Positions 4,971 through 56,140 of a stretch of 64,000 nucleotides of DNA are shown in pieces. The position numbers and the translations under genes were made by a program. The number at the start of each line of letters is the position of its first letter. The first letter of the stretch is position 1. The notes under the pieces are model-generated. The model searched no databases. It saw only the letters and a program-made list of their open reading frames with translations, and was not told the origin of the DNA. Origin of the DNA: Bacteroidales bacterium (GTDB lineage: Bacteria > Bacteroidota > Bacteroidia > Bacteroidales > Dysgonomonadaceae); contig DUPB01000031.1 of assembly GCA_012838585.1 (NCBI GenBank), forward strand, positions 1,017 to 65,016. The letters run 5' to 3'.

Positions 4971-4999
4971 CTTTATAGTTCCCACAATAACAAAATAAA

Positions 5000-5778: not shown

Positions 5779-5786
5779 TATATTTG
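5779..5786 (+). promoter_or_regulatory. Bacteroidetes -7 box (TATATTTG)
   Basis: Matches TAnnTTTG, 36 bp upstream of the ATG at 5823. Confidence 0.5.
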
Positions 5787-5822
5787 CATTCGATTTACAG
5801 TCATTCATTATTAAAAAAAACT

Positions 5823-36186: not shown

Positions 36187-36223
36187 CTTTAATTCATTGC
36201 GCTACTTCTACATTCTATAGAGC

Positions 36224-37126: not shown

Positions 37127-37203
37127 GAATCTATCTAATACAGGTAACTATTCCGCCAAAGTTACTTATATTCGATGTTGTAACTAAAATAAATTTATCC
37201 TTT

Positions 37204-39450
37204 ATGAAACATAGACACTTTTTTGTTATAGCCCTCTTGCTTTTTCCCTTTATGCTATCGGCCCAAGGGATTGACAGCCTGTACCGTTTGGCTGATAACT
37301 ACACCGAATTGTTTACTTCAAAATATTATTGGGGTGCCCAAAACGTACGGGCAGGCTATAGAGCACATCTATTTGCCTATGAAACCCAAACACCGGATGG
37401 ACCTGAGTATTTTATTATTGATCCCGTGGCGGCAACCCAGGAAAAAGCATTCGATCGGGAACGTATCTCCATAGCACTTTCTAAGTTTCTTAATCGGGAA
37501 GTGGATCCCAACAATCTTCCTGTACGCCGATTGCGCCCGGAAAAAGATTCGCTCTTTTTTACCATTGATGACGTGGATCACTTCATGACGCTGTCAGATT
37601 ACACAATAACTAAATGTCAGGAACAAAACAATTATACCAGACCTTACTGGGGCCTTATTGACAAAGAAAACGCAAAAGTAAATGTATCCTCTCCCGACGG
37701 CAAAAAAGAGGCCTATATTTCTGAAGGGAACCTGTGGGTAAGAGATATTGAGACAGGAGAGAGAAAGAAACTGAGCAACGATGGCTCACCCTATGCTTAC
37801 TACTCTTCAAAAATCTATTGGTCGCCCGATTCGCGTAAAATTGTATGCAGCAAATACAGTCCCGTAGAATACAGGAAGTTGTTGTTAATCTCTTCATCGC
37901 CCACCACGCAATTGCAACCTCTCACGGAAGAGTATGAATATCCAAAACCCGGTGATGCTTTACCCGTGAGACGTCCTGCCCTTTTTATGGTGGAAACGGG
38001 CGAAATAGTCCATTTCGATATTCCCAACATTGAACAACAATACTATTTAGGCAACATCAAGTGGAATAAAAACAGCGATTTCTTCACTTTCGATTTTAAC
38101 AGGCGCGGACATCAGCAATACGTGATTTATGCCGGAAATCTGTCGGGAGAGCTACGTGCTGTTGTTAATGAAGAGTGCGATACCTTTATCTACTACTACT
38201 CACTCTATCAGTATTGGTTTGAAAACTCAGACGAAATGCTTTGGATTTCCGAACGTGACGGGTGGCGACACCTCTATCTATACGATGTCCTTTCGGGAAA
38301 AGTTAAAAAGCAGCTGACCAAAGGTGAATGGATCGTTAAGGATGTGGTGAGGGTGGATGAAAAAAAGAGAGAAATCCTATTTATAGGGTGCGGAATGGAT
38401 AAAAATGAGGATCCTTATCTCGAAAAATATTTTTTGCTCAATATAGATAATGGCAACATAGTGGCCCTTACTCCCGAGAATGCCCACCATAGCGTAACTT
38501 TCTCACACGATTACGCCTACATGTTCGATTCTTACTCACGGGTAGATTTGCCACCAACTTTGGTTGTTCGCTCCGTTGAACAGGGCGGAAAAGTTATCTA
38601 TAAACCCTCTTTGCAACCCGATATTTCTGCTGTTAAAGCAGCAGGATGGCAACAACCCGAAGTTTTCTCCGCGAAAGGACGCGATGGAAAGACCGATATC
38701 TGGGGTATGATTGTTCGTCCTTCGAATTTCGACCCGTCGAAAAAATATCCCGTTATTGAATATATCTACGCCGGACCACATGACTCACACGTGCCCAAAC
38801 ATTTCGCTATCGAGCAACGATATACATCTGCTCTTGCCGAGTTGGGATTTATACTTGTAATGATGGACGGAATGGGAACGGCAAACCGCTCAAAAGCCTT
38901 CCACGATGTCTGCTGGCACAATATTAAAGATGCCGGTTTCCCTGACCGAATCGCGTGGATCAAAGCCGCTGCAGCGAAATATCCCGAAATGAATATCGAC
39001 AACATGGGTATTTACGGCATGTCAGCAGGTGGACAGAGCACTATGGGTGCACTTCTATTCCATCCAGAATTTTACAAAGTGGGCGTTTCGGCGTGTGCAT
39101 GTCATGACAACCGCATGGATAAAATCTGGTGGAACGAACAGTGGATGGGGTACCCTATCGGCGAACATTACGCCGCCTCTTCCAATATGGAAAATGCTCA
39201 CCTTCTGGAAGGAAAACTGCTACTTATTATGAGTGATTTGGATAACAACGTTGACCCGTCGAGCACAATGCAAGTGGTAAAAGCACTCATCAAACATGAT
39301 AAGGAGTTTGATTTGGTGATGCTTCCGGGAGAAAGGCATACCATGGGTGGAAAATATGGTGAGAGGAAGCGTCGCGACTTCTTCGTCAAGCACATTCTCA
39401 ATATCGAACCGCCAGAATGGAACAGCAAGAACAGCAATTCTAACAAGTAA
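37204..39450 (+). CDS. Secreted S9B dipeptidyl-peptidase IV-like prolyl oligopeptidase
   Basis: Signal peptide, DPPIV_N-like propeller, catalytic GMSAGG, DNNVD and GERH. Confidence 0.88.
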   Translation: MKHRHFFVIALLLFPFMLSAQGIDSLYRLADNYTELFTSKYYWGAQNVRAGYRAHLFAYETQTPDGPEYFIIDPVAATQEKAFDRERISIALSKFLNREVDPNNLPVRRLRPEKDSLFFTIDDVDHFMTLSDYTITKCQEQNNYTRPYWGLIDKENAKVNVSSPDGKKEAYISEGNLWVRDIETGERKKLSNDGSPYAYYSSKIYWSPDSRKIVCSKYSPVEYRKLLLISSSPTTQLQPLTEEYEYPKPGDALPVRRPALFMVETGEIVHFDIPNIEQQYYLGNIKWNKNSDFFTFDFNRRGHQQYVIYAGNLSGELRAVVNEECDTFIYYYSLYQYWFENSDEMLWISERDGWRHLYLYDVLSGKVKKQLTKGEWIVKDVVRVDEKKREILFIGCGMDKNEDPYLEKYFLLNIDNGNIVALTPENAHHSVTFSHDYAYMFDSYSRVDLPPTLVVRSVEQGGKVIYKPSLQPDISAVKAAGWQQPEVFSAKGRDGKTDIWGMIVRPSNFDPSKKYPVIEYIYAGPHDSHVPKHFAIEQRYTSALAELGFILVMMDGMGTANRSKAFHDVCWHNIKDAGFPDRIAWIKAAAAKYPEMNIDNMGIYGMSAGGQSTMGALLFHPEFYKVGVSACACHDNRMDKIWWNEQWMGYPIGEHYAASSNMENAHLLEGKLLLIMSDLDNNVDPSSTMQVVKALIKHDKEFDLVMLPGERHTMGGKYGERKRRDFFVKHILNIEPPEWNSKNSNSNK

Positions 39451-39469
39451 TTAATTAAGATAAAAGCTT

Positions 39470-40858
39470 ATGTTTTCAAAAGAGACGTACATTTCCAGGA
39501 GAGAACAATTGAAAAAAAAGTTTCAATCAGGCGTACTGCTTTTTTTAGGCAACGACGAGTGTGGTATCAACTATGAGGACAACACCTACTATTACCGGCA
39601 GGATAGCAGCTTCCTCTACTATTTCGGCATAAGTAGGCCCAACCTCGCGGCACTGATCGATATTGACGAAAACAGGGAGTATATTTTTGGCGATGAGGCC
39701 ACCATCGACCTGATTGTTTGGACCGGCTCCCAACCCTCCATACAGGAGTTAGCCGAACGAGTAGGCGTTAAAAATACCAACAGCTTATCACGCTTAACAG
39801 AGAAACTCAGGAAAACCGATAAGGAAAAAATCCACTATCTACCACCCTATCGCGCGGAGCATATTCTAAAACTCAATCACCTGTTGGGGTATCCGAAAGA
39901 GGAGATTTCTGCAAAAACAAGTAAAAAGCTGATTGAAGCAGTAGCCAATCAACGCAATATCAAATCGGAAGAGGAGATCAATGAAATTGAAACAGCGGTT
40001 AGCGTGTCGTCAGAGATGCATAAGAGGGCCATGAATTTCGCCCGTCCCGGCATGACGGAAGCCCAAGTAACCGCGGTGGTTCATGAAACAGCACTTGCGG
40101 CGGGCGGTAATATAGCTTTCCCGATTATCGCGACCATCAACGGGCAGTTCCTTCATAATCACTACCATGGCAACACCATTCATGAAGGTCAACTATTCTT
40201 ACTGGATGCTGGCTATGAAACCCCATTGGGATATGCCGGAGATTTGAGCAGCACATTTCCAGTGTCCAGAAAATTCACTGAACGTCAAAAAGAGATTTAC
40301 CAAATAACGTTGGAAGCTCATAACATCGCTATTAAAATGTCCATGCCCAATGTCAACTTTAAAAATGTGCATATGCACGTTTGCGAATTTATTTTTGACA
40401 GACTAAAAGAGCTCGGTTTAACGAAAGGCAACACTCAGGACGCGGTTGAAAACGGAGCGCACGCGTTATTCTTCCCTTGCGGAACAGGTCATCTTTTGGG
40501 ATTGGATGTACACGATATGGAAAGTTTGGGAGAGGAGATTGTAGGATATAACAATGTACCTAAAAGCACACAATTCGGCTTAAAATCTCTTCGCTTGGGA
40601 AGGGAGCTTGAACCCGGTTTCGTACTTACTATCGAGCCCGGAATCTATTTTATACCCGAGCTGATTGATTATTGGCGGGAGAAAAAAATCAATACCGATT
40701 TCATCAATTTCGATGAAGTTGATACATATCGGGACTTTAGCGGCATCCGCAACGAGGAAAATATCTTAATTACGGAAACAGGAAACCGCGTACTCGGCAA
40801 ACCGTTGGCTAAAAGCATCGAAGATGTGGAGGCTGAGCGAAGGGTCGCTTTTATGTGA
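39470..40858 (+). CDS. pepP: Xaa-Pro aminopeptidase/prolidase (M24B)
   Basis: AMP_N-like N-terminus (YRQDSSFLYYFG). Metal ligands LLDAG, GDLSSTF, GHLLGLDVHD, TIEPG, RNEE. No signal peptide. Confidence 0.85.
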   Translation: MFSKETYISRREQLKKKFQSGVLLFLGNDECGINYEDNTYYYRQDSSFLYYFGISRPNLAALIDIDENREYIFGDEATIDLIVWTGSQPSIQELAERVGVKNTNSLSRLTEKLRKTDKEKIHYLPPYRAEHILKLNHLLGYPKEEISAKTSKKLIEAVANQRNIKSEEEINEIETAVSVSSEMHKRAMNFARPGMTEAQVTAVVHETALAAGGNIAFPIIATINGQFLHNHYHGNTIHEGQLFLLDAGYETPLGYAGDLSSTFPVSRKFTERQKEIYQITLEAHNIAIKMSMPNVNFKNVHMHVCEFIFDRLKELGLTKGNTQDAVENGAHALFFPCGTGHLLGLDVHDMESLGEEIVGYNNVPKSTQFGLKSLRLGRELEPGFVLTIEPGIYFIPELIDYWREKKINTDFINFDEVDTYRDFSGIRNEENILITETGNRVLGKPLAKSIEDVEAERRVAFM

Positions 40859-40976
40859 TATTTAAAGGAGGTAAAGCATTTGTAAATACAAGAAACGAAA
40901 ATTATGCCTACAAGAGACCATTTGGCGATGTATTAGTTGTTCCTATTGGGTCTTTTGGGTGGAAGCATAGTTAGAA

Positions 40977-43517
40977 CTAAGAGGAGAGTTTAGAAACAGT
41001 CCTTTTCCTGTACGCGAGGATGCCAAGGAGAAGGATGAGCCCAAAGGCGGCCGCGATATACAGGAAAACAGCGACCGATCCGCTGGTATGCCCGTAAGAG
41101 TGCATACCGCTCAGGAAGTAGTTCACCCCCAGGAAGGTCATTAACACCGATGAGAAAGCAAGTACCGAGAGGAAGTTAAACAACCAGGTGTAGTTTCCCT
41201 TTTTCGCCAAGTGGATATGCGTAACGATGGCGTAAATCACCACGGTAATCAACGCCCAAGTCTCCTTGGGATCCCATCCCCAGTAGCGCCCCCACGACTC
41301 GTTGGCCCAAACGGCACCAAGGAAAGTCCCGGTAGTCATCAAGGCAAGTCCCACCAGCAGCGACAGGTTATTGATGATGCTTAGCTCTTTCACACGGGAG
41401 GTTACAGCGGCATCGTTCTTGGTGAACGCTATCAGGGAGAGGTTGGTGATACCCAGCAGGAAGCTGATGCCGAAAAAGCCGTAGGCCGCCACGATGACCG
41501 CCACGTGAAACATCAGCCAGGGCGACTTCAATACGGGTACTAACGTGTTGATCTGAGGATCCATCCAGTTGAGCCCCGACACGAACAGGATCACCCCCCC
41601 GAAGAGGGTTGCCAAGGCAAGCGTGAGGCTGTTCTTCCGCCCAAAGAGCAACCCGGCCAGCACCGTGGCCCAGGCGATATAGACCATCGTTTCGTAGGAG
41701 TTGCTCCAGGGTGCGTAGCCGGAGATATACCACCGTAGCCCCATACCGAACATATGGTAAAGAAAGATCAAGACGACAGCGATGGTTAGTACACGAGAGG
41801 CGTAGGTCAACCAAGAACGACTCCTGAATAACTGAACCGCGGCCACCAGAAGCAAAAGTCCCCCGAGAATAAAGTACCCCACCTTGCATCGGCCGAAAAT
41901 GTTCATCTCGTTGTAATGCACTTCCGCCCTTAACTTCTTGGGGTTAATAAGCTGTGCCTTATCATTCTTCAACTGATGTGCTTCAAGTAGCCAGAGCACG
42001 TCACCCGCTTTATCCCAGTCGCCGCTCCTCACCGCGTGTCCCACTTCCGATAGGTACAAAGAGAAGGTTTGGGTGATAAAGAGCGAATCTTGTCGCGGGA
42101 AGTGGCTCAAATCTTCCCCAGGGGCATACCAAGTGTGGGTCGGGTCGTTCGGATCCGGGAAAATACCGGGAATCGAATAGTTAAAAAGCTGGTAGACGAT
42201 GTTGACCCGTTCATCCAGGTTGATCAGCTCTTTATCCAGTGTACTCCTCTCATTGACCGGTCGGTGAAAAGCCTCTTGCAAACGCGGCAACAAGCAGTAA
42301 CGCCCCTCCTCATCAAAAAAGTCAGCATATGCCGCGTAGCTGCCAGGCAATTCATACATGAACTGTATCAGCTCATTGTCCACCACGATAAGCGGCACCA
42401 TCGACCAAACACGCGGCATCGCGAAGAGGCTCAACAGAAACCGATCGGGGTTGAGACCCTCGAAATCCCTCTCCTTATGAAGTTTCCGGAGGATTTCAGA
42501 AGAGAAGGTGTTCATCGGCATCACCCGCCCCCGGAACTGAACCGGCAGGGCGCCGAAACGAGCCGCATGCTCGACAGGCACGGCGTTCTGTAACGCGGTC
42601 TCCAACGCGGCGTGGTGTGCATCCATCCCCACCCTGACTGACGGGGAAACTTGCATGGGTTGGCTCACCTCTAAGCTGTCATCGAGTAAGGGGGCTAACA
42701 TGGTGTCAGACGTAGATTCCTGCCCGATAACCGTTGAAGGGAACAGCCCCAGGAAGAAGCACAAGGGAAGAGCGGGCAGTACCTTTCTCGCTTGCTTTCT
42801 GACCCCTTTCAACTGCTTAAGCAGCGTGCGAAAGCGTGAATTGGGGACGAAGAATATAAGGATAAAGCCGATAATCAGGAGGAGGTAGCCGGAATAGGTG
42901 ATGGTTCTTCCGGCCACATCCCGGTTCACGGAGAGGACGGTCCCTTTTTCGTCGGGATCATAGGATGCCTGAAAGAAGCGGTACCCCTTCAGGTCCAACA
43001 CGTTGTTCATAAAAACCCGCGCCTCACGCACCTCCCCGTCCAGATGAACAAGCAGATCGCTCTCGTAGGATGAGGGACTTTGGGAACCGGGGTAACGGTT
43101 TAGCGTGAACTTTACCAGTTCCAACTCGAACGGCAGCCGCTCGACCTGAACCCCCTTGGAGGTATACATCACCATCCGGTCGCTTCGCTCCCCCTCCCGG
43201 ATATGTACTTGTCCCTCCTTGCCAAACAGATGGGTGGTTAAGGCTCCCCCAAGGATCACGATCAACGCGAAGTGAATCACCAGAAGGGCCCATTTTTTCC
43301 GAAGAAACCACTTCTCTCGGAAAAGCAGAAGAAGGAAGTTCAGCACCAGCAGGAACTGGAGAAAAATAAACAATGGGGAGTAGTAGACCAGCATTTTCGC
43401 CGCTTCCGTCCCCATTGTTTTCTCAATGAAGGTAGCCGAGGCTAACCCCACCGCGTAAATCGTCATCAGAACGATGGTGCCCCTATAGGATGAAAAGAAT
43501 GTGAATACCCTCTCCAT
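40977..43517 (-). CDS. ccsA: Fused system II cytochrome c synthetase CcsB-CcsA (ResB/ResC)
   Basis: ResB-like N-terminus (IHFALIVILGG), WWD motif WANESWGRYWGWDPKETW, conserved His in MFHVAV and SGMHSY. Confidence 0.9.
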   Translation of the reverse strand: MERVFTFFSSYRGTIVLMTIYAVGLASATFIEKTMGTEAAKMLVYYSPLFIFLQFLLVLNFLLLLFREKWFLRKKWALLVIHFALIVILGGALTTHLFGKEGQVHIREGERSDRMVMYTSKGVQVERLPFELELVKFTLNRYPGSQSPSSYESDLLVHLDGEVREARVFMNNVLDLKGYRFFQASYDPDEKGTVLSVNRDVAGRTITYSGYLLLIIGFILIFFVPNSRFRTLLKQLKGVRKQARKVLPALPLCFFLGLFPSTVIGQESTSDTMLAPLLDDSLEVSQPMQVSPSVRVGMDAHHAALETALQNAVPVEHAARFGALPVQFRGRVMPMNTFSSEILRKLHKERDFEGLNPDRFLLSLFAMPRVWSMVPLIVVDNELIQFMYELPGSYAAYADFFDEEGRYCLLPRLQEAFHRPVNERSTLDKELINLDERVNIVYQLFNYSIPGIFPDPNDPTHTWYAPGEDLSHFPRQDSLFITQTFSLYLSEVGHAVRSGDWDKAGDVLWLLEAHQLKNDKAQLINPKKLRAEVHYNEMNIFGRCKVGYFILGGLLLLVAAVQLFRSRSWLTYASRVLTIAVVLIFLYHMFGMGLRWYISGYAPWSNSYETMVYIAWATVLAGLLFGRKNSLTLALATLFGGVILFVSGLNWMDPQINTLVPVLKSPWLMFHVAVIVAAYGFFGISFLLGITNLSLIAFTKNDAAVTSRVKELSIINNLSLLVGLALMTTGTFLGAVWANESWGRYWGWDPKETWALITVVIYAIVTHIHLAKKGNYTWLFNFLSVLAFSSVLMTFLGVNYFLSGMHSYGHTSGSVAVFLYIAAAFGLILLLGILAYRKRTVSKLSS

Positions 43518-43639
43518 TTACTACCTTTTTACGTGTCGTACCACACGCAACGTACCAAACCGCGCAGCGTAATTAGATACACTGCACGGCAAGATGTGCA
43601 GCACGTGAAGTGATGCTAAGTGTCAAGCCGCACCGCGTG

Positions 43640-44551
43640 TTATGCCTCCTCCCACTGCGTACGAAGCAGTTCCAAGGCAGCCGGTATCACCACTGCCCGG
43701 TCACCCTCGCAGCCGCACTCGAAGCTCACGTACTTATCGTACCCTATCTTCTTCAGTGCCTTAAAACCTTCCACGTAATTATCGGCCTCGCCATCTTCAC
43801 CCGGCGTGAGGCGACGCTTACGGCTCGCGATATGCACATGTTGTAGGTAGTCTCCCGCCGACATGAACGCACCGTAATCGGAAGTCTCTTCCCAAGTCAT
43901 ATGCCAGAAGTCGCCCAGGCAAGTCACCCCCGGGTTGTTGATATCGCGACAGATGGATGCCGCATCGGCTAACAACCTCAAGTAGAAGGCCTCCCTACGA
44001 TTCAACGGCTCCAGGATAACGGTAGTACCATGCTGTTGCGCCAGCGTACCCATCTCGTTAAACTGCTCGCACAAGAAGTCGCGGGTCTCCTGGGTATGGG
44101 GCATCGCCGGTTGCTGGTGGTTGAACGCGGGTACGATAATTACCCCGGTCGATCCCACTTCACCCGCGGCGATAATCAACTGCTCCATGGTGTCGCGGCA
44201 CAGCTTGCGCACCTCGGGGTCGGTCGATAGGATAAACCCATCAAATCCCGCGCAAACCGCGCTCATCTTGATGTTGCGCCCTTGCAAAGCGTCCAGGTAC
44301 TCCTGCTTGCGTGCCAGTAACGCCTTGCCGTGCGGCTCGAAGCCCACTACCCCGTTGGCTTCCATGAAATCGAACTTCTCGTTCAAGTTCTCACCCGGGG
44401 CGTTTCCTTCCTGGAAAGATATTTTCAACTCCACATCGGAAGTATCACTCCCCTTCTTCCCACCTCCGGATATCGAGGTACACCCGCCGACGGCCATTAC
44501 GGCCGATCCGGCGAGTGTAGTCTTAATAAACTTTCTTCTATCAAGTGTCAT
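43640..44551 (-). CDS. Tat-exported lipoprotein, xylose-isomerase-like TIM barrel (sugar phosphate isomerase/epimerase family)
   Basis: Twin-arginine DRRKFIK plus lipobox-like AVGGC. Metal ligands ILEPLN, GDFWH, HVH, SFEC. Confidence 0.85.
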   Translation of the reverse strand: MTLDRRKFIKTTLAGSAVMAVGGCTSISGGGKKGSDTSDVELKISFQEGNAPGENLNEKFDFMEANGVVGFEPHGKALLARKQEYLDALQGRNIKMSAVCAGFDGFILSTDPEVRKLCRDTMEQLIIAAGEVGSTGVIIVPAFNHQQPAMPHTQETRDFLCEQFNEMGTLAQQHGTTVILEPLNRREAFYLRLLADAASICRDINNPGVTCLGDFWHMTWEETSDYGAFMSAGDYLQHVHIASRKRRLTPGEDGEADNYVEGFKALKKIGYDKYVSFECGCEGDRAVVIPAALELLRTQWEEA

Positions 44552-44562
44552 AGTATCCCCTT

Positions 44563-45936
44563 CTATTTGCCGCTTCCCGGTACAGGTACCGTGAATCCGG
44601 ACATATCCATCTTCCCGATATTCAAGTCAGCTGGCGTGTAGTCGAGCGTCGATGCCGTCATGCCATCCCACGTGGTCTCTTGACCCGTGTAGGCCGATTC
44701 ACGCCCCATGATCGCGGCCATATTGGAAACTGCCGTTTCGGATGCCTGCTCGATGGGTTTGTTACCACGGATGCAGTTGATCAGGTTCACGTGCTCCAGC
44801 GTGTAGGGATTGGTTTGCTTGAAGTTGGCCTTTTCTGCCTCGTAATCGAACTTCCATATCTCGTTACCACTGTTGTCCACGATGCGGCAACCACCTTGAG
44901 AAGTCCAGTATCCTTTTGTCCCTTGCACGAACTCGCTCACGTTATTGACACACCCGTCAATCTGGCGGCACATGCTGTGCAGGTGAATCCCGTTCTCCAT
45001 GGTGAAGTCGATGCTAAAGTTATCGTACTGGTCGCCCGTTACACGGCGTTGACGCGAGCCGAAGCCCACCGCGCTCACCGGCTTCAATCCCGAGAACCAG
45101 GTAAAGACGTCGATGTTGTGCACGTGCTGCTCCACGATATGGTCGCCCGACAGCCACTTCCAGTTCACCCAGTCGCGTACCATGAACTCGAAATCGTTCC
45201 ATTGAGGCTGACGCTCGCGGTACCATAGCATGCTCTGGTTCCAGTAAACAACCCCACCGGTAATTTCACCGATAGCCCCGTTCATGATCTGTTGGAACGA
45301 CTCCACGTAGCAACGTTGGTGATGGCGCTGCGTACCGGTAACCACCCGCAGGTTCTTGGCCTCTGCCTGGCGTGCTGCCGCCATGATGGTGCGATACCCT
45401 ACCGCGTCCACGCAAATCGGCTTCTCCAGGAAGCAATGTTTACCCTTTTCCACCGCGTACCTAAAGTGCTCGGGACGGAAGAATGGTGGCGTACAGTCGA
45501 TCAGCACGTCGATATCGCTATCAATCACCTGCTTGTACGCGTCCAGCCCAACAAAGCGCTTTTCAGCCGGGATATCAATCCCTTTCTCATCTTTCAGTTT
45601 ATTGGCTAAGCCGTCTACCCGGTCTTGGAAAACATCGCCCAAAGCAGTGATGGTCACCCCATTAGCCGCGTTTAAAAAGTCCATGGCCGCACCGGAACCT
45701 CGGCCACCGCATCCCACTACGCCCGCTTTTAGTTCTTGGCCGTCCGTTGCCAAGTCTGGTAATTCGGGAATGTAGTAACTGCCCGGTTCCCTCAGAGGCA
45801 CGTTAGCCCCGTTCTTCGTACCCCCGCCACAAGAGGTCAAAAAACCTGCCGATCCGGTACCGATCACGCCAACGGCACCTGCCACGGCAGATGTCTTCAG
45901 GAAGTCTCTCCTGGTTACACTGTTTTCTTTCTTCAT
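44563..45936 (-). CDS. Tat-exported lipoprotein, Gfo/Idh/MocA oxidoreductase
   Basis: TRRDFLK plus lipobox FLTSC. Rossmann GCGGRG, EKP, EQHVHNID. Confidence 0.88.
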   Translation of the reverse strand: MKKENSVTRRDFLKTSAVAGAVGVIGTGSAGFLTSCGGGTKNGANVPLREPGSYYIPELPDLATDGQELKAGVVGCGGRGSGAAMDFLNAANGVTITALGDVFQDRVDGLANKLKDEKGIDIPAEKRFVGLDAYKQVIDSDIDVLIDCTPPFFRPEHFRYAVEKGKHCFLEKPICVDAVGYRTIMAAARQAEAKNLRVVTGTQRHHQRCYVESFQQIMNGAIGEITGGVVYWNQSMLWYRERQPQWNDFEFMVRDWVNWKWLSGDHIVEQHVHNIDVFTWFSGLKPVSAVGFGSRQRRVTGDQYDNFSIDFTMENGIHLHSMCRQIDGCVNNVSEFVQGTKGYWTSQGGCRIVDNSGNEIWKFDYEAEKANFKQTNPYTLEHVNLINCIRGNKPIEQASETAVSNMAAIMGRESAYTGQETTWDGMTASTLDYTPADLNIGKMDMSGFTVPVPGSGK

Positions 45937-46071
45937 GTTGATTTGTCTATTTAAATAATTTACTATTGAATTATTGTTTTACACTTATGTGTACGGTATT
46001 CGCTTTTCTCACGCCACAGCTCCCAAGATAATTCCCGTGCCAATGGATTCCAAGACTATTAAATTCCCAGG

Positions 46072-47652
46072 TTACAGGATTCGCGAATCAGGTTCACAAA
46101 CCACCCTGAAACCAATCCCTTTCACGTCTGAATACCACCAGATGCTCTTGGGCTGTTGCGGGTCGGTTTTAAGCCATGCGTCGTGCTGGGTATGTGCCCG
46201 GCTCGCGCTACGCACGTCAGCCGCGTCAGAGGCGTAATGCCCACCCCGTACTACCCACTCCTCGCCTTCCGTTACCAGCGGGTCACGGGTCACCCCCGAC
46301 CGCTTGGTGTAGGCTCCGGGATCGTACTTATCGGCCGTGTACTCCATCACGTTCCCCAACATGTTCTTCAGCCCAAACGGGTTAGGCAACACTACAGAGG
46401 GCAACTGTGTACGCCCATCGCTATTTTTATCGTATACCACGTACGCGCTAATGCTATCTGTTTTCGCCTTAAAGATGCTCCTCATAAAACCCTGGTCCGA
46501 AAAATGCTTTGGGCTACCCGGGAAGAAGTAGGCGCTTTCGCTCCCACCCCGTGCCGCGTACTCCCACTCTGCTTCGGTGGGAAGGCGGTACTTCTTACCA
46601 GTCTTGGCAGAGAGCCACTGGCAGAACGTTTCGGCAGCATAGTGCGTCATCGTGATGGCTGGCCGGTCACCCTGTCCCCACCCCTGATCCGGGTAACCGA
46701 ACGGGGGCGTGGGGCCCGATATACCATCCACGCCGATAGCATCACGGTTGTTTTGATAGACGGTCTCCGGGGGCGTCCGTCCTTCACTCATCGTCTCGGC
46801 ATAAAACGCCCAGAAGAGATCCCAAGTAGTCTCTACCTCGGCCATAAAGAAGGGACTCAGCTCTACCTCATGCTGAGGCGATTCATCGGAATTCCTAAAC
46901 GGCTCCTTCTCCGGGCTTCCCATCATGAACGTGCCCCCTTTGAGGGCAATCATGTTGAACGACAAAGGGGTACCAGGAACCTGCTCCGTGTAGTTCACGA
47001 AGGCGGTAACAGGTGTGGCCTCCTTGTAGAAGAGGCTCGTGTCGACTTTGGCCGCACTGGCTAAACCGGGAATACCCACCATTTGACCGTGCGAGTAGTT
47101 CGGGTTGTAGTGGCCCGCGTCAAGGTGGCAACTGATACACTGAAGGTCAAGCTCCTCCACGTTCTCGTCGTAGTGCAGGTGCGCGATGATTCCCTCATCG
47201 GTTATGCCTTGTGGAAACAGGTCCTGGTGGCACTTCACGCACGACTCGTTGGGAATGTACTTCACCGCGTACTCCAATTCCGACTTCCTCTCCCAGTTGA
47301 TGTCCGCAGTATCCTTGGTAAGGTATCCCCACACATCCTTTATACCCAGTGACATTTTGGCCGTGTAGTGCGCCCACGTATCATTGGAGGGGGGCAGGTG
47401 GCAATCGATACAATCGACCATCACCCCGCTGCCATTATTCACGTGAACCGAAAGCTTCCAACTTTCGTTCACGTGAGGGTGAACGTGGCACATCATGCAC
47501 GACTCGTTGGTAGAGAAGTAAACCGAAGCCTGGTAGAGGGATGCCACAATGATGATCCCTATTACAATACCAATGGATAAGATGAAACCTTTGCGCTGAT
47601 GAATTTTTTTCTTCCTTGCCTCTTTTTTGACTCTTTTCGAACGTTTAGCCAT
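46072..47652 (-). CDS. NapC/NirT/NrfH tetraheme cytochrome c fused to an FGE/SUMF1-like domain
   Basis: Basic N-tail, one TM helix, four CxxCH (aa 52, 81, 138, 172). FGE-sulfatase-fold motifs GGTFMMGS, EVETTW, RLPTEAEWEYAAR, FGLKNMLGNVMEY, VVRGG, GFRV. Confidence 0.85.
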   Translation of the reverse strand: MAKRSKRVKKEARKKKIHQRKGFILSIGIVIGIIIVASLYQASVYFSTNESCMMCHVHPHVNESWKLSVHVNNGSGVMVDCIDCHLPPSNDTWAHYTAKMSLGIKDVWGYLTKDTADINWERKSELEYAVKYIPNESCVKCHQDLFPQGITDEGIIAHLHYDENVEELDLQCISCHLDAGHYNPNYSHGQMVGIPGLASAAKVDTSLFYKEATPVTAFVNYTEQVPGTPLSFNMIALKGGTFMMGSPEKEPFRNSDESPQHEVELSPFFMAEVETTWDLFWAFYAETMSEGRTPPETVYQNNRDAIGVDGISGPTPPFGYPDQGWGQGDRPAITMTHYAAETFCQWLSAKTGKKYRLPTEAEWEYAARGGSESAYFFPGSPKHFSDQGFMRSIFKAKTDSISAYVVYDKNSDGRTQLPSVVLPNPFGLKNMLGNVMEYTADKYDPGAYTKRSGVTRDPLVTEGEEWVVRGGHYASDAADVRSASRAHTQHDAWLKTDPQQPKSIWWYSDVKGIGFRVVCEPDSRIL

Positions 47653-47837
47653 TATAATTTCTGATAAAGTAAGCTGGGCTATAGATTTTACCTATACATT
47701 TCTGAAATTCGCTATAAAAGTAGGCAATATTATCCTATTTGGAAAAAAATAGCCCTTAAAAGTGCCATTTTGACTACGTATTTCCTGTAATCGCTCGTTT
47801 CCTAAAGGAATTAAATTCCTCAACGGAATCCTTTATT

Positions 47838-48488
47838 TCAACGGGAGTTCGCTTCCTCCTGTGAATCTATCTCCAACGATTTAACTTGCTTGATCAGGCT
47901 TTGTGGTTTCATTCGTCTAACCATCTCTATCTCCATCAGGCGGTCCGGAAAGCGCTTTCGAACATAGTCAATGTCCTCCATGTAGAGCGAATCGGCTTGA
48001 TGATAGCACGCATTCGCAGCCTGCTGCGTAATAAAAGCGCCCAAGCTATCCGGGTATTCCGCCAATACCGCTTTTAGGAACTCGTTGCTACGGTGGAAGC
48101 TCACCTCCGCTTTCTCCGGCTGCTCTTTGGCCGCCTGGAAGAGACCCAGTTGAAACAGGTACTCCCCGGTTATCGCCCCGATCCGGTCAGCCTCCTCCTG
48201 AACCGTTAAGGCCGAATCCAGGTAACCCAGTTCACACAGAAGCCTGGCTTTCAGGCCGTAATAATCGGGGTTAAGGCTATCGATCAACAAGGCTTGATCT
48301 ATCAATCGAATGCAGCTCCACGTGGTATCCACATCGTAGTTGGAGACCCGTTGCAGGGCCTCTTGGTAAAAAACATCCGCCTCCGGGTCAACCGTGTGAG
48401 GGGTAATATCGATGGCAGCACCCGGCTTGCAACCGAAGAGAAGCAGCAAGGGGGCAACCAGCAAGGGTAATGAAAACAGTTTTCGCAT
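47838..48488 (-). CDS. TPR-like helical lipoprotein
   Basis: Lipobox LLFGC and TPR-like helices (IDQALLIDSLNPDYYGLKARLLCELG). Confidence 0.6.
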   Translation of the reverse strand: MRKLFSLPLLVAPLLLLFGCKPGAAIDITPHTVDPEADVFYQEALQRVSNYDVDTTWSCIRLIDQALLIDSLNPDYYGLKARLLCELGYLDSALTVQEEADRIGAITGEYLFQLGLFQAAKEQPEKAEVSFHRSNEFLKAVLAEYPDSLGAFITQQAANACYHQADSLYMEDIDYVRKRFPDRLMEIEMVRRMKPQSLIKQVKSLEIDSQEEANSR

Positions 48489-48608
48489 CTTGATTCAAAT
48501 AAAAGTAATCAACTGGCTTACAAAACTTTCACTGACATTTTCGTTATCATTTCTGCTTTCATACGCGACTGTCCGAAGAAAGTTTCAAGAAACAACAGGT
48601 AATGGTTG

Positions 48609-48646
48609 AAAAAGCAGAAGGGAGACCTAATGATCTCCCTCTCTGC
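48609..48646 (-). terminator. Intrinsic terminator of the SusC/SusD operon
   Basis: Minus strand GCAGAGAGGGAGA-tcattagg-TCTCCCTTCTGC followed by TTTTT. Confidence 0.75.
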
Positions 48647-48757
48647 CGCTATTATGGACGATTACACACAATCGCTCTTCTATCAAACGAACAGTGTAAG
48701 TTAATTTCGCCGGAATTGGTGAGCCCGCCTCAATGAACCAGGCTCACGTGGCTGACC

Positions 48758-49873
48758 TTACTCTTTAATGCGGTACAGTGCAAACTCGGCCATGTTAAAG
48801 AAGCGTGGACCCCTGCCATCGTTGGTTGCGTTAACCACGAAGCGGAAGTATTTGAAGGGGGCATCAGCCGCTAAGTAGGCCGACTCGTACGTGGAGCCCG
48901 CACCTGTTGGCAACCCGGAGGTGATACGGATTAATTCCGTCCAATCCGTGCCGTTGGCACTCACCATGATCGACACGTCTTGTGCTTTCCCGTTCGAGTT
49001 GTTCCGGTTTTGATACCAGAAAACACATCCGTCAATGGGTTCATCCAAAGCAACCTGGAAGTGGTGCATCTCGCTGATTGAACCTGACCACAATGAATGG
49101 AAGAAGGTACCCGGATTACCGTCTATCAGGTTCGCTATGGGGCCTTCTCGTGGCTCTTGCGCGTTAGACGACAGCATATCCACGCGTAGCGGGATTTTCT
49201 CCATGATCATCTCCTCTTGCACAATCACGAAGGAGGCCATCTGGGAATAGTTCTCCGACGACTGGAACGTAACGGTTCCGTAACGTGGGTTACGGGCCAT
49301 ATTCTGTGCCACCTTAAACGTTACCCGCTTCTCATCGGCCTTCCCGGCCACGTTTTTGATGCTATAAAGCTGTATGAAGGCAGCCGTATCCGGGATCAAC
49401 ACGTGATCCACTTTCAGGTTCGACTTCACGGTGACTTCCACGGTACCTGCAACGGACGGGATCGACTTAAACACTCCTTCCACTTTCCCCTCCACCAACA
49501 TGAAGGAGCTTTTGCACTCTTGGGTTACGTTGATGTAGTAGGCTTGGTGCCCGTACTCGATAGTGATACGCCCGACGCGGGGAGCGTAGGTGTCATTTCG
49601 GGTGGCCTGGATATCTACCTGCCCCTCCCTCTTTTCAACCGTCAGCCATGCCGCGTTGGAGGAGGTGGACCATTTGGACAGCTCCACGTTGGTGATTACC
49701 TCCGCTACCGCCGAACCGCCCTCTATAGGGAAAACGATGGGGGACAAGCTTTTATCCGGAACAACCAACGTTTTCACCTCGAATTCAGTCTGATAATCGG
49801 GGGCACACGAGGTAATGCCTAAAGCACCAATGATTACCCCGATCAAAATGATTAACACGATATTTTGTCTCAT
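48758..49873 (-). CDS. Surface lipoprotein with BACON-like and F5/8 type C (discoidin, CBM32-like) domains
   Basis: Lipobox ITSC. BACON pattern (SNAAWLTVEK..ATRNDTYAPRVGRITI). Discoidin (NLIDGNPGTFFHS, SANGTDWT, YFRFVV, AEFAL). Confidence 0.75.
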   Translation of the reverse strand: MRQNIVLIILIGVIIGALGITSCAPDYQTEFEVKTLVVPDKSLSPIVFPIEGGSAVAEVITNVELSKWSTSSNAAWLTVEKREGQVDIQATRNDTYAPRVGRITIEYGHQAYYINVTQECKSSFMLVEGKVEGVFKSIPSVAGTVEVTVKSNLKVDHVLIPDTAAFIQLYSIKNVAGKADEKRVTFKVAQNMARNPRYGTVTFQSSENYSQMASFVIVQEEMIMEKIPLRVDMLSSNAQEPREGPIANLIDGNPGTFFHSLWSGSISEMHHFQVALDEPIDGCVFWYQNRNNSNGKAQDVSIMVSANGTDWTELIRITSGLPTGAGSTYESAYLAADAPFKYFRFVVNATNDGRGPRFFNMAEFALYRIKE

Positions 49874-49919
49874 AGAATCTATAATTTACTTAACTGTAAG
49901 GAATCCTCGATACACGTTA

Positions 49920-50915
49920 TCACAACAACTCTGCCCGGGGGCTATACTCCATGCGCAAGATCGCTTTTACCTCCTTATACGGGTCCGTAGACTTCAATCT
50001 GTACTTGTAGTGTAGGCGAAACTCCTTGTAATAGGTCCTCCTCCCGTCAGGAGTGGAGATAATGTTGATTAAGAAGGTGTTGTCGTACATCTCGAACGGG
50101 GTAAGCTGCACCACATCGATGCTCTTGTATGGCGTGATGGTCACCTCACGCGCCAGCGGATTTTTCACGGTCTGCTTGCCGATCGCCACGACGATACTCC
50201 GTTCGTTAATCCGGTTGAGGGCCGTCTTATACTCCCCCAGGTTCTCATCACCGGCCATCATCCTCACCGAGTTCCCTGCCAACGGGAACACCTGGTTGGT
50301 GCTGGTGGGTCGGCGAACCAAGGGGTTGTTCAAATCGAGCAAGGTCACGAAGCTGGAGGTGTAGTTGTAATAGACGTTCCGGCGGGTGGTAGAGAACTCG
50401 TTCGACTTATAGATACGCAGCAGTACCTCTTTCTTTTTCAGGTTATACTCGTCAGTGTTCAACGGGTCAATCTGGTAATCGAGGAAGTAGATCGAGTCGG
50501 GCGAAATCTCTCCCAGGTTACGTAGGTAAACGGGAATTTTCACCTGCATCTCTCCAGCCGGGATAACCGCCTCCAGCGAAGGGATGGTGAAATACCTCTC
50601 CGGAAGGATGCGGGCATAACGGTTCGTCTCGATATCAAAGTTCGATTTATTGTAGGCCTTGATCAACGAGTCGCCCCTCATCAGCGTCACCTTGAAATCC
50701 TGGTCGGAGGGACGCGTGCCGCTTAGGGCGGCTACCAGGTAGATGGTGTCGGTATCCTTGGAGAGATCGGCCACCTGCCTGTCGTAAATCATCTGGGAGT
50801 TGCTCAACAGGCCTACCTCGTTCTTGTACTGCTCTTGTTCAAAGTCGTACGATTCGCAAGCGGTCGTCAAGGCAAACCCAAGTACCAAACAAGCTAATAT
50901 GATATTGTTCTTCAT
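49920..50915 (-). CDS. PUL-associated lipoprotein (DUF1735/BT_3987-like N-terminal domain)
   Basis: Lipobox TTAC. LIKAYNKSNF and LPERYFTIPSLEAVIPAGE..VKIPVYL resemble DUF1735. Located after SusD. Confidence 0.6.
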   Translation of the reverse strand: MKNNIILACLVLGFALTTACESYDFEQEQYKNEVGLLSNSQMIYDRQVADLSKDTDTIYLVAALSGTRPSDQDFKVTLMRGDSLIKAYNKSNFDIETNRYARILPERYFTIPSLEAVIPAGEMQVKIPVYLRNLGEISPDSIYFLDYQIDPLNTDEYNLKKKEVLLRIYKSNEFSTTRRNVYYNYTSSFVTLLDLNNPLVRRPTSTNQVFPLAGNSVRMMAGDENLGEYKTALNRINERSIVVAIGKQTVKNPLAREVTITPYKSIDVVQLTPFEMYDNTFLINIISTPDGRRTYYKEFRLHYKYRLKSTDPYKEVKAILRMEYSPRAELL

Positions 50916-50949
50916 CTTAAATCAATTTTACGGTTTATATTTCAACATA

Positions 50950-53010
50950 TTACCTATCCCAACCCGGGTTTTGATCCATCGCGGGCACTTTAAGCAACTC
51001 ATCGTGAGGCAGGGGCAGCAGCACCATCCTCGGCAGCGCGATCCGGTCACGAATGTTCTGCGTGTTGATGGTCACGATTTCAAAGAATCCCTCGTTGTTG
51101 TTGCTGTTGGTTCGGTCTCGCTCCACGTTCAACCCCCTCCAGTTATTGGTGCTGGCATCGTCATCCAGGTAGGTGCCCCAACGGCGGGTATCGAACACGC
51201 GGTACCCCTCGTTAAACAGCTCTACTTGCCGCTCGTTCATCAGCACTTGCTGGAACTCGGCCCGGCTCGACAGTTGCACTTCCGTGGCACCCGGAAGTCC
51301 CGCACGATAACGTATCATGTTGAAGTACCTCGCCATCTCCGTAACGTCGCGGGTAATGGTAACCTCCACGGTCTCGTTACCCAGGGCGTTAAACAGCTCC
51401 ACGGTTTCCGATCCCTCCACGTTGTTCAACGCCTCCACGTATTCCAGCAGCACCTCAGCGTAGCGGATAATGGGGAAGGGCTTGGGACCGGTTTGGAAAG
51501 CGGCATTTACGCTCCCCTTGCCGTTCGCCCACGAATCATCGGGATGAATATACTTAACGGGGGTGTATCCACTTACGTTGTAGTCATTGATGTTGCTCCC
51601 GGCACCGGTGATACCCGACACGTCTTCGTACGAGAACCAAAACTGCTTCTTGTTGTAGTTGGCGTCCTGCGATGCGGAGTTCATCGGCCAAAAAGAGCCA
51701 GGGAAGCCAATAGAAGCGTAAAAGCGTGACTCCCGGTTGTCGTACATCTTGGGCACGCTGCCCATCAGGATATAGCTTCCCAGCGTCTTTCCACTTCCCC
51801 CGATAGTATGGGTCAAATCAGGATCGTAGGGGTACTCGTCGGAGGAGTCATGAATGGTACGGCCATCGGCCATCAAGTAGCAGTCGACCACCCGCTGTGG
51901 CACGGCCATCCCTCCCCATCCCCCGAAGTAGACCGGGAACGAGTGACGCGTGTAGTTATTCACGTTGTTGGACGGCATGGCCCAGATAAACTCCTTGTTG
52001 GTCTGCATAATCCCCTCGCCGTTAAACATTTCGTGGTACGAGCGCAACGGGTCAATGCCACCGGCACCGTTCGGGAAAGTTGCGGTGGGCACGTTCGGTG
52101 CCAAGGGATAAGGGTGCAGCGGATCCACGTCGACCGTGTGCAACTGGTAGTATCCCATGTCGATGACCGACTTCGCGGCAGCCGCGGCTACGGCCCATCT
52201 GCGCGGGTCGTACTCCTGGTTCACGTAAAACACCCCATCGCTCGACCGCGTCCAGGAACCAAAACAGCGCCGTGCCGCATCACCCCCGTTAAAGAGTGGT
52301 GAGGCTTGGTAGAGGCGCAGCCGTGCGATAAGCGCCAGCGCCGCCCCTTTCGTGGGACGTTCGTACAGGCTAATCGACTGTTGGCTCGCGGTGGGTAAGA
52401 CAAGGGCCGCCTCCATGAACTCATTGCAGATGTAGTCTACCGACTCATCGTAGGTAGAGCGTTCGCGGTCGTAATATTCTGCAGACTCTGAGTTGGGCAT
52501 CACCTCGTCGCCCACGATCAGGCAGGGTCCCCAGTTCATCAGCAGGTGGTAATAAGCGTAACCGCGCAGGAAATGCACGTAGCCCTTGTAGAGCTGTTTC
52601 TCACGTGTGGACATATCGCCCACCTTATCCACGTTAGCCAACATGTAGTTACAACGACGTATCACCCGGTACATTTGGTACCAGATATTCATGGACGAGG
52701 GAACGTTTCGCTCGTTGATCTCCCCAACGGTGAACAGTACACCGGGGAACTCGCTGGTTCTCCAGCGGGTGGTAATCTCATCCGAAGCCATCTGTCCCAG
52801 GTTCCACGAACCGCCCCAGATTGCACCGGGATCGGGAAAGTCCTTAGGGGTATTCCAGAGGTAACCGTCCGCGTTCTTCATGCTATGGAAAATAGAGTCC
52901 TCACGGAACGTGTCCTCGAAATAGGTGTCAACATCCAAGAAGTTGCAGGAACTGAGCATCACGCCAAAAATCCCCACGATCGCTATTAATATTTTTGATG
53001 TAACCTTCAT
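50950..53010 (-). CDS. susD: SusD/RagB family nutrient-binding lipoprotein
   Basis: Lipobox LSSC. FLRGYAYYHLLMNWGP, IIRYAEVLLEYVEA, NERQVELFNEGYRVFDTRRW, QNPGW terminus. Confidence 0.93.
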   Translation of the reverse strand: MKVTSKILIAIVGIFGVMLSSCNFLDVDTYFEDTFREDSIFHSMKNADGYLWNTPKDFPDPGAIWGGSWNLGQMASDEITTRWRTSEFPGVLFTVGEINERNVPSSMNIWYQMYRVIRRCNYMLANVDKVGDMSTREKQLYKGYVHFLRGYAYYHLLMNWGPCLIVGDEVMPNSESAEYYDRERSTYDESVDYICNEFMEAALVLPTASQQSISLYERPTKGAALALIARLRLYQASPLFNGGDAARRCFGSWTRSSDGVFYVNQEYDPRRWAVAAAAAKSVIDMGYYQLHTVDVDPLHPYPLAPNVPTATFPNGAGGIDPLRSYHEMFNGEGIMQTNKEFIWAMPSNNVNNYTRHSFPVYFGGWGGMAVPQRVVDCYLMADGRTIHDSSDEYPYDPDLTHTIGGSGKTLGSYILMGSVPKMYDNRESRFYASIGFPGSFWPMNSASQDANYNKKQFWFSYEDVSGITGAGSNINDYNVSGYTPVKYIHPDDSWANGKGSVNAAFQTGPKPFPIIRYAEVLLEYVEALNNVEGSETVELFNALGNETVEVTITRDVTEMARYFNMIRYRAGLPGATEVQLSSRAEFQQVLMNERQVELFNEGYRVFDTRRWGTYLDDDASTNNWRGLNVERDRTNSNNNEGFFEIVTINTQNIRDRIALPRMVLLPLPHDELLKVPAMDQNPGWDR

Positions 53011-53022
53011 ATATAGTAGTTG

Positions 53023-56121: not shown

Positions 56122-56140
56122 ATCAAGTTATAGCTAAGAA

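Follow-up and report, generated by a model that had tools for sequence, protein, structure and literature searches.

We describe a gene cluster in a 64,000-nucleotide stretch of contig DUPB01000031.1 (positions 1,017 to 65,016, forward strand) from a Bacteroidales bacterium of the Dysgonomonadaceae (GenBank assembly GCA_012838585.1); the whole of this stretch is called the window below. Three adjacent genes encode a membrane-anchored fusion of a NapC/NirT-type cytochrome domain with a domain of the formylglycine-generating enzyme (FGE)/PvdO fold, an oxidoreductase of the Gfo/Idh/MocA family (hereafter Gfo), and a xylose-isomerase-like TIM barrel protein. We hypothesize, with somewhat better than even confidence, that these proteins form a periplasmic sugar or glycoside:menaquinone oxidoreductase that uses a flavin on Thr315 of the fusion and feeds fumarate respiration. 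The part of this proposal that we hold to be probable is that electrons from Gfo reach the quinone pool through the fusion. That the FGE-like domain carries flavin mononucleotide (FMN), attached to Thr315 by the flavin transferase ApbE, is on the sequence evidence an evenly balanced proposition.

The gene anatomy, motifs, synteny, co-occurrence, and domain fusions reported here can be read directly from the sequences and gene orders. The features of the cluster are as follows.

47652..46072, minus strand: fusion gene (NapC/NirT-FGE), 526 amino acids (aa), from the list of open reading frames (ORFs) with matches to PF03264 (88.6 bits) and PF03781 (127.3 bits).
47098..47595, minus strand: transmembrane (TM) helix and four CxxCH motifs, residues 20-185 of the fusion, from the translation and the alignment with NrfH (2J7A_C).
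46093..46956, minus strand: FGE/PvdO-fold domain, residues 233-520 of the fusion, from Pfam, Foldseek, and the subfamily alignment.
46708..46728, minus strand: candidate ApbE flavinylation site D309-G-I-S-G-P-T315, from the translation, with Thr315 as the putative FMN carrier.
45936..44563, minus strand: Gfo/Idh/MocA oxidoreductase gene, 457 aa, predicted twin-arginine translocation (Tat) lipoprotein.
44551..43640, minus strand: xylose-isomerase-like TIM barrel gene, 303 aa, predicted Tat lipoprotein.
43517..40977, minus strand: CcsBA (fused ResB-CcsB) gene, 846 aa, with PF05140 and PF01578.

A sequence-only reading of the window, which we followed up, had reported four co-directional genes separated by gaps of 135, 11, and 122 bp, and the ORF coordinates agree with it in order and spacing. 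Its account of the first gene product, a tetraheme NapC/NrfH domain joined to an FGE-fold domain without the catalytic cysteines, is upheld by the Pfam matches, the CxxCH motifs, and the absent cysteine pair, and the string that it quoted for the FGE-like domain, VVRGGHYASDAADVRSASR, lies at residues 467-485 of the fusion. Pfam matches and sequence motifs likewise agree with its description of two Tat-signal lipoproteins (the oxidoreductase and the TIM barrel) and a heme lyase. The three intergenic gaps contain no terminator according to a scan for sigma-70 promoters and terminators, in which counts were no different from the shuffled expectation. No exact site was detected for the Bacteroidetes -7 motif TAnnTTTG, and its near-matches occur only upstream of the fusion and upstream of a TPR gene described below, a distribution that is weakly compatible with a single transcription unit. 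The fusion, Gfo, and TIM barrel genes presumably form an operon. Rfam gave zero matches across 40500-49000.

Gene order is strongly conserved. A scan of one genome per species yielded 593 loci with a relative, of which the best 80 (at least 66% identity; Dysgonomonadaceae and Tannerellaceae) were analyzed. Gfo follows the fusion in 72 of the 72 loci with sufficient sequence (median gap 39 bp), and the TIM barrel follows Gfo in 67 of 69 (median gap 6 bp). The conserved unit is therefore a set of three genes, fusion-Gfo-TIM. The recurrence of this unit in the related loci, and of an FGE-like gene with Gfo in 18 of 20 distant Bacteroidota loci, is far beyond chance. The three genes are also found in a Parabacteroides distasonis record (L042) and in Tannerella forsythia ATCC 43037 (L060), where their neighbors show no SusC/SusD match. 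The closest homologs of the fusion belong to Proteiniphilum and Fermentimonas (~80% identity), and the most similar related loci are those of a Bacteroidetes bin (97%) and a Petrimonas sp. metagenome-assembled genome (94%), which marks the organism as an anaerobe of Dysgonomonadaceae type. In four loci (L010, L078, L007, and L020) the fusion-Gfo gap is widened to 320-540 bp, which suggests insertions, possibly of elements resembling miniature inverted-repeat transposable elements.

The N-terminal region of the fusion (residues 20-185) matches Cytochrom_NNT/NapC-NirT (PF03264) at 88.6 bits against a gathering cut-off of 24.1 and is the sole NapC/NirT match in the genome. It opens with a single TM anchor (N-in), GFILSIGIVIGIIIVASLY, followed by the heme motifs CMMCH, CIDCH, CVKCH, and CISCH; this domain is predicted to be periplasmic, to carry four hemes, and to react with quinone. 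K99 and D106, which are invariant in alignment A1, align with K82 and D89 of Desulfovibrio NrfH (2J7A_C; E = 0.0016), residues that line the menaquinol site in the NrfHA structures. The first heme motif reads CMMCHVH, and its H58 aligns with the Met ligand of NrfH CTSCHIM. The fusion does not reach the NCBIfam equivalog cut-offs for NrfH (65.2 vs 134.2), NapC/NirT (48.6 vs 310.6), or TorC (65 vs 478), and NCBI labels it a "SUMF1/EgtB/PvdO family nonheme iron enzyme".

The C-terminal region of the fusion matches FGE-sulfatase (PF03781) at 127.3 bits over residues 233-490. A Foldseek search with the model of the fusion returned PvdO (5HHA) as the best match and FGE structures at E ~1e-15, and the NCBIfam PvdO model NF051459 is the top match of the fusion, at 86.6 bits against a cut-off of 500. 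In the AlphaFold model, whose predicted local distance difference test score (pLDDT) is 68.8, the FGE core is confident and the heme domain is not. Because the catalytic copper-binding cysteine pair that follows RGG(S) in FGE is absent, both from the fusion, which reads RGGHYASDAADVRSASR at that place, and from all 70 aligned subfamily members, the domain is, judged from its residues, not an FGE. A DPQxPKSxWW signature near its C-terminus characterizes the subfamily.

Searched against 1.84 billion cluster representatives, the C-terminal domain of the fusion (query residues ~216-520) proved to define a distinct FGE subfamily whose members carry at their N-termini NapC/NirT, two PSCyt1 monoheme domains, FG-GAP repeats, ApbE, or a signal peptide alone. 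In a survey of 401 evenly sampled Bacteroidota genomes, 39 have an FGE-like match, including 3 NapC fusions and ~35 stand-alone proteins of 320-360 aa. All 38 genuine holders of an FGE-like gene also encode the Gfo subfamily, the 39th genome having generic FGE matches only. We retrieved 20 of these distant loci, and in 18 of the 20 a Tat Gfo belonging to the subfamily of the present one (266-497 bits) is the immediate neighbor of the FGE-like gene; a Tat TIM barrel is also present in about half. The same Gfo subfamily follows distant NapC-FGE fusions (L084 and L086; 46% and 44% identity) as well as the stand-alone form (L090). In some loci the FGE-like subfamily adjoins CxxCH proteins. Two of them, L106 and L111 (G235 and G247), have a 217-247-aa lipoprotein with one CxxCH directly upstream of a stand-alone FGE-like gene, with Gfo and TIM barrel genes following, an order that, by its domain content, is an unfused counterpart of the cytochrome-FGE arrangement.

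The sequence-only reading had cautioned that no flavoprotein is encoded to bridge NAD(H) and heme, and a candidate appears to lie within the fusion itself. ApbE attaches FMN to the last residue of the motif D-x-x-[S/T]-G-A-[S/T], and changes of G to A or of A to V in this motif merely reduce flavinylation (PMC12052999). The fusion contains DGISGPT, which agrees with this motif at six of seven positions, Pro replacing Ala. D309, G313, and T315 are invariant in alignments A1 and A2. Across an alignment of 70 diverse members of the FGE-like subfamily, the terminal Thr or Ser is kept in 69 and the Asp in ~66, and several members have exactly DAISGAT or DAITGAT; the dipeptide preceding the Thr is variable (G-P, G-A, R-P, L-P, or H-P). 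Located past a TM anchor together with c-type hemes, the FGE-like domain is predicted to be extracytosolic. The flavinylation motif is absent from multi-FGE-domain proteins of other subfamilies and from Gfo, the TIM barrel, and CcsBA; Gfo was rejected as an ApbE target, none of 21 orthologs having the canonical motif. The pattern D[AG]x[ST]G[AP][ST] occurs in just four ORFs of at least 150 aa in this genome, among them NqrB, a classical ApbE substrate. Elsewhere in the genome, contigs C203 (462 aa) and C224 (864 aa) encode predicted surface lipoproteins with the exact motifs DAWTGAT and DGISGAT, which may be chance matches or further unrecognized flavinylated proteins.

The subfamily is also linked to ApbE by fusion, adjacency, and co-occurrence. 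ApbE-FGE fusions form at least seven 90%-identity clusters from independent sources, and they adjoin the same Gfo subfamily in all three cases examined (L083, L091, and L092/93). Seven of the 20 distant loci have an ApbE gene no more than 8 kb away from the FGE-like gene, with the ApbE gene lying within the operon in L101, L110, and L114, and in three Dysgonomonas-type loci a divergent ApbE gene adjoins the NapC-FGE fusion. ApbE is present in 39/39 genomes with an FGE-like gene and 55/55 with the Gfo subfamily, compared with 263/401 overall (Fisher p = 2.5e-8, uncorrected for phylogeny). Five of the seven locus-linked ApbEs are closer to the ApbE moiety of a Planctomycete ApbE-FGE fusion than to the housekeeping ApbE of this genome. 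Because a conserved ApbE-type motif coincides with these three kinds of linkage to ApbE, the FGE-like domain itself is most likely the missing flavoprotein between the NAD(P) enzyme and the hemes, and the caution of the sequence-only reading is probably answered within the fusion. Its suggestion that the FGE-fold domain docks the enzymes or binds substrate may hold in part; the motif and the ApbE linkage indicate that this is probably not the only role.

The five ApbEs just mentioned (those of L098, L099, L105, L108, and L114) score 176-219 bits to the Planctomycete ApbE-FGE moiety and 78-103 bits to the ApbE of this genome. They form a distinct ApbE clade that accompanies FGE-like/Gfo clusters in distant Bacteroidota. 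The genomes concerned hold 1-3 ApbE genes, with 2-3 in four of the five, so that this clade may serve the variant R-P motif as its dedicated flavin transferase. For the subfamily as a whole, we give even weight for and against the broader proposal that it is an unrecognized class of ApbE-flavinylated carrier that re-oxidizes the NAD(P)H of Tat-exported Gfo enzymes and feeds interchangeable c-type cytochromes, which would be NapC/NirT here and PSCyt1 or separate cytochromes elsewhere.

Gfo matches PF01408 (37.7 bits), PF22725 (30.2 bits), and PF02894 (27.8 bits), all above cut-off, and its Rossmann GCGGRGxGA motif and E171-K172 (EKP motif) are invariant in 21 orthologs. It belongs to no characterized equivalog (best iolG at 50 bits; BT_2158_fam NF058561 at 22.2 bits against a cut-off of 750), and among solved structures it lies nearest to inositol dehydrogenases, DgpA, and a glucuronide-3-dehydrogenase (30-40 bits). 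We presume it to be a sugar or glycoside dehydrogenase with bound NAD(P). The TIM barrel protein matches AP_endonuc_2 (PF01261) at 103.4 bits, is orthologous to the unannotated structural-genomics entry 3KWS (477 bits), and next most closely resembles the 3-keto-D-glucoside 4-epimerase YcjR of E. coli (6WN6; local match of 92 bits). Its E/D/H/E metal tetrad lies in EPLNR, GDFWHM, HVHIA, and SFEC, which align with the corresponding blocks of YcjR 6WN6 and TM0416. It reaches no NCBIfam equivalog cut-off, and we presume it to be a 3-keto-sugar epimerase, isomerase, or lyase.

Both enzymes are predicted to be exported as Tat lipoproteins. The Tat signal of Gfo (PF10518, 27.4 bits) contains TRRDFLK and a lipobox LTSC; in the TIM barrel protein the corresponding sequences are DRRKFIK and VGGC, with PF10518 at 17 bits, below cut-off. 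The lipobox Cys is retained in Parabacteroides and Tannerella orthologs, and in distant orthologs of both enzymes the Tat signal lacks a lipobox. The Tat lipoproteins that the sequence-only reading saw as part of the system are thus present in this cluster and are not general to the family; going by these signal sequences, the lipid-anchored state is lineage-specific.

A paralog of Gfo (448 bits) is encoded on contig C62. The cluster there (C62:1744-8909, minus strand) encodes a TIM barrel (318 aa), this Gfo of the same subfamily (458 aa), a BT2158-like Gfo (417 aa, 144 bits), and an 1132-aa protein with HEAT repeats and two 3-keto-disaccharide hydrolase (DUF1080) domains, and it resembles BT2156-BT2159 of B. 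thetaiotaomicron. In the B. thetaiotaomicron system, glycosides undergo periplasmic oxidation at C3, and the acceptor to which BT2158 passes electrons is described as "as yet unidentified" (PMC8121099). Because a paralog of Gfo sits in a 3-keto-disaccharide-hydrolase cluster, we favor glycoside C3 oxidation, by analogy, as the chemistry of the present system. Among the sugars, inositols, and glycosides earlier proposed as substrates, this tilts the choice toward glycosides. DUF1080 itself is found in the C62 cluster only and in none of the four genes or their neighbors.

From these elements we infer that Gfo binds NAD(P) and that the fusion carries a flavin, together with the direction in which electrons run and the type of substrate, and we posit the following mechanism. 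Gfo would be exported folded by the Tat pathway with NAD(P) bound and would oxidize a sugar hydroxyl, most likely at C3 of a glycoside. The reduced nicotinamide, unable to leave Gfo, would be re-oxidized by ApbE-attached FMN on Thr315, carried on a flexible loop of the FGE/PvdO-fold domain. The flavin would split the hydride into single electrons and pass them to the four c-type hemes of the NapC/NirT domain, which would reduce menaquinone at the NrfH-like site (K99/D106), and the menaquinol would be re-oxidized by a b558-type fumarate reductase. The Tat-exported, metal-dependent TIM barrel protein would handle the keto-sugar product by epimerization, isomerization, or beta-elimination, and CcsBA would attach the hemes. 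A b558-type fumarate reductase cytochrome b is encoded on contig C82 (180.8 bits), and cytochrome bd, which was found in a B. thetaiotaomicron control, is absent from this 99.7%-complete genome. By standard potentials, the path from sugar through NAD(P)H, FMN, and hemes to menaquinone and fumarate would run downhill.

Several points weigh against this mechanism. The fusion has Pro where known ApbE sites have Ala, the stand-alone relatives mostly have R-P, L-P, or H-P before the Thr, and we found in the literature no ApbE tests on Pro or Arg-Pro variant motifs. The argument from ApbE-FGE fusions is weakened by Planctomycete ApbE also being fused to many unrelated domains, and the present genome has a single ApbE (270 bits, contig C108), unlinked to the fusion. 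The AlphaFold model is uncertain, with pLDDT below 50, for the motif loop (residues 288-320) and for the conserved segment at 492-509, DPQQPKSIWWYSD, and for this reason offers no flavin pocket; such low confidence would fit regions that depend on a cofactor or partner and is proof of nothing. No precedent is known to us in which NAD(P)H bound in a Gfo-family enzyme gives up its hydride to a flavin on another protein, and NapC/NirT proteins usually oxidize quinol rather than reduce quinone. An FGE-like partner is present in 38 of the 55 genomes with the Gfo subfamily and lacking in 17, and the C62 paralog cluster is not adjoined by a cytochrome or an FGE-like partner, so that the enzyme can occur with no partner beside it; the C62 Gfo may share the single NapC-FGE fusion or work redox-neutrally. 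The support, finally, is computational throughout.

These points lend themselves to other explanations, each of which we consider less probable. The FGE-fold domain might be a non-redox dock or lectin-like substrate binder, with Gfo passing electrons to heme without a flavin or through another carrier. PorK and GldK, found among the matches in the Protein Data Bank, use the FGE fold as a scaffold, the catalytic Cys pair is lost, the adjacency to Gfo is tight, and the motif is non-canonical in most subfamily members. A dock would nevertheless leave the step from two-electron NAD(P)H to one-electron heme unexplained, and would account neither for the near-invariant D...T/S loop and the ApbE-FGE fusions beside Gfo nor for the in-operon ApbE genes and the co-occurrence of ApbE in 39/39 genomes; we regard it as unlikely. 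A slightly lower probability attaches to a scheme in which Gfo and the TIM barrel protein work redox-neutrally, first by oxidation, then by elimination or isomerization, and last by reduction, as in BT2156-2159, Lgd, and Dgp, and the fusion does no more than reset or poise the bound NAD(P) upon a stall of the cycle, or has an unrelated respiratory role. BT2158 and Zymomonas GFOR are thought to recycle their bound cofactor with a second substrate (PMC8121099), and the 17 of 55 Gfo-subfamily genomes without an FGE-like partner and the C62 cluster without a cytochrome would fit this scheme; an unrelated role is hard to square with the presence of Gfo in 38/38 FGE-like genomes and its near-universal adjacency, whereas a resetting function would share the electron path that we propose.

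Electrons might also flow in the reverse direction, the NapC/NirT domain oxidizing menaquinol and passing electrons by way of the FGE-like domain to Gfo, which would reduce a periplasmic keto-sugar or other carbonyl as an electron sink. The family's usual activity as quinol dehydrogenases (CymA, NrfH) and the conserved NrfH-like site residues speak for such a direction, and a strict anaerobe without an oxidase, cytochrome bd being absent, would gain from sinks. Transfer from menaquinol (standard potential ~-74 mV) to NAD(P)+ (~-320 mV) is, however, strongly uphill, a fumarate reductase is already available as a sink, and stand-alone FGE-like genes are frequent among Bacteroidota families of other orders, so that we judge reversed flow improbable. 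Least probable of all, and in our estimate very much so, is that the FGE-like domain is a PvdO-like periplasmic oxidoreductase that hands electrons to the hemes from a small molecule, which Gfo and the TIM barrel protein merely supply or remove. PvdO does give the best sequence and fold matches, and the NCBIfam "dihydropyoverdine dehydrogenase" model is the top match; its 86.6 bits stand far from the cut-off of 500, PvdO has no D...T loop in the pairwise alignment, no pyoverdine-like pathway lies nearby, and the ApbE linkage would go unexplained.

The sequence-only reading had envisaged a membrane complex that couples periplasmic sugar redox chemistry to quinone. The conserved module of Gfo, TIM barrel, and NapC/NirT agrees with that idea; the inclusion of CcsBA as a specific part of the system does not stand. 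CcsBA matches ResB (PF05140, 88.1 bits) and Cytochrom_C_asm (PF01578, 120.7 bits), contains the WWD motif as WGRYWGWD, and scores 169.3 bits against TIGR03144, slightly below the cut-off of 187.6. It is the only cytochrome c synthase of the genome (a single match) and follows the TIM barrel gene in 19 of 55 related loci, all of them of Dysgonomonadaceae type, mostly labeled Petrimonas, Proteiniphilum, Fermentimonas, or Dysgonomonas and none labeled Parabacteroides or Tannerella. We rejected it as a dedicated component on these grounds and because it would also be needed by an 11-heme cytochrome; on its sequence and distribution, CcsBA is a lineage-specific neighbor and the general heme lyase of the genome. 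The 11-heme protein is the sole other multiheme protein in the genome (875 aa, 11 CxxCH motifs; C105:1798-4426, minus strand). Both of its ends carry hydrophobic segments, it contains domains like those of MtrC/MtrF and of c7/c554, and its gene is divergent from that of an outer-membrane protein of the phosphate-porin family (4549-5839, plus strand). The 11-heme protein may conduct electrons outside the cell or in the periplasm, and CcsBA would then be needed for it as well.

The cluster is flanked on both sides by other genes. A polysaccharide utilization locus at 47838-57649 (minus strand), co-directional with the cluster, encodes an NHL/TIG protein, SusC, SusD, a BT_3044-like/DUF4973 protein, a BACON and F5/8 type C protein, and a TPR lipoprotein, and contains no recognizable glycoside hydrolase. 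A terminator-like hairpin at 48641-48618 parts most of this locus from the cytochrome cluster. We rejected the locus as a part of the system on account of this hairpin, because the SusC/SusD proteins upstream of relatives are non-orthologous or absent, and because the neighbors in the Parabacteroides and Tannerella loci have no SusC/SusD match. The TPR lipoprotein gene (47838-48488) was rejected as a member since, of the related loci, only the 97%-identical L003 has it. On the other side, 33817-40858 (plus strand) encodes a glycyl-radical enzyme (PFL-like and Gly_radical), its activase, a DPP-IV-type S9 peptidase, and an M24 Xaa-Pro aminopeptidase whose gene end converges with the ccsBA stop, 119 bp apart; this set looks like a hydroxyproline/peptide utilization cluster.

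Comparison with known systems indicates that the job proposed here, a periplasmic dehydrogenase wired to quinone, is known in kind and that its parts are undescribed. The fusion resembles NrfH, CymA, and NapC in its N-terminal TM anchor, its four CxxCH motifs, its PF03264 match, and the placement of K99/D106 at the positions of NrfH K82/D89. It differs from them in the added FGE-fold domain, in having H58 in place of the heme-1 Met, in equivalog scores far below cut-off, in the proposed reduction of quinone, and in a partner that is an NAD(P)-type dehydrogenase and not a reductase. With PvdO of Pseudomonas (5HHA), its closest solved structure (60 bits; TM-score 0.72 on the target), it shares a Cys-less periplasmic domain and a redox-linked role, whereas PvdO has no heme domain, aligned D...T loop, or Gfo partner and belongs to another pathway. 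Like the ApbE-flavinylated carriers NqrC, NqrB, RnfG, NosR, and PplA (PMC8238504), the FGE-like domain is predicted to be periplasmic with a D-x-x-[ST]-G-x-[TS] loop, is tied to ApbE by fusion, adjacency, and co-occurrence, and is paired with membrane electron-transfer modules. In contrast to those carriers, its fold is FGE/PvdO and not FMN_bind, NqrB/RnfD, or DUF2271, and it has Pro at position -1, with R-P at -2/-1 in many relatives instead of G-A.

Among sugar-oxidizing systems, BT2156-BT2160 (Liu et al. 2021, PMC8121099) and E. coli YcjQRS similarly combine a Tat-exported Gfo/Idh/MocA glycoside dehydrogenase with a TIM barrel in the periplasm. Unlike BT2156-BT2160, the present cluster has a Gfo outside the BT2158/BT2159 families and no DUF1080 hydrolase, and it encodes next to the enzymes a heme-containing acceptor, perhaps with a flavin, where BT2156-BT2160 has no cytochrome. 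The flavoprotein-cytochrome c sugar dehydrogenases LacABC (a lactose/glucoside 3-dehydrogenase) and ThuAB have the same proposed job, periplasmic C3 oxidation of glycosides connected to the respiratory chain (PMC8121099, PMC9007349); LacABC is a three-component, cytochrome c-dependent enzyme (PMC8121099), whereas the system proposed here consists of Gfo, a candidate FGE-fold flavin carrier, and a NapC/NirT anchor. The glucose-fructose oxidoreductase (GFOR) of Zymomonas mobilis likewise belongs to the Gfo family and reaches the periplasm through the Tat pathway with NADP tightly bound (PMC8121099). GFOR re-oxidizes this cofactor with fructose, and here a protein partner would act as the second "substrate". 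A full-text literature search found no paper on a NapC-FGE fusion, a fusion-Gfo-TIM module, or a flavinylated FGE fold, the GapMind and fitness papers do not treat the fusion, and in two surveys of flavinylation none of the terms queried in each, drawn from formylglycine/FGE, sulfatase/SUMF1, Gfo, and NapC, occurs.

The cofactor of Tat-exported Gfo/Idh/MocA enzymes cannot be exchanged in the periplasm, and the disposal of their electrons is an acknowledged gap (PMC8121099). If our proposal is correct, a flavin-heme partner would close this gap, and periplasmic glycoside oxidation would be energy-yielding through fumarate respiration and not redox-neutral, a new respiratory entry for sugar electrons in Bacteroidales of the gut, the oral cavity, and digesters. 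A new fold would join the substrates of ApbE, and thousands of proteins named as FGE or nonheme iron enzymes would need reannotation. More broadly, the FGE-like subfamily would then represent a general wiring of periplasmic NAD(P) enzymes to respiration in Bacteroidota, Planctomycetota, and related phyla.

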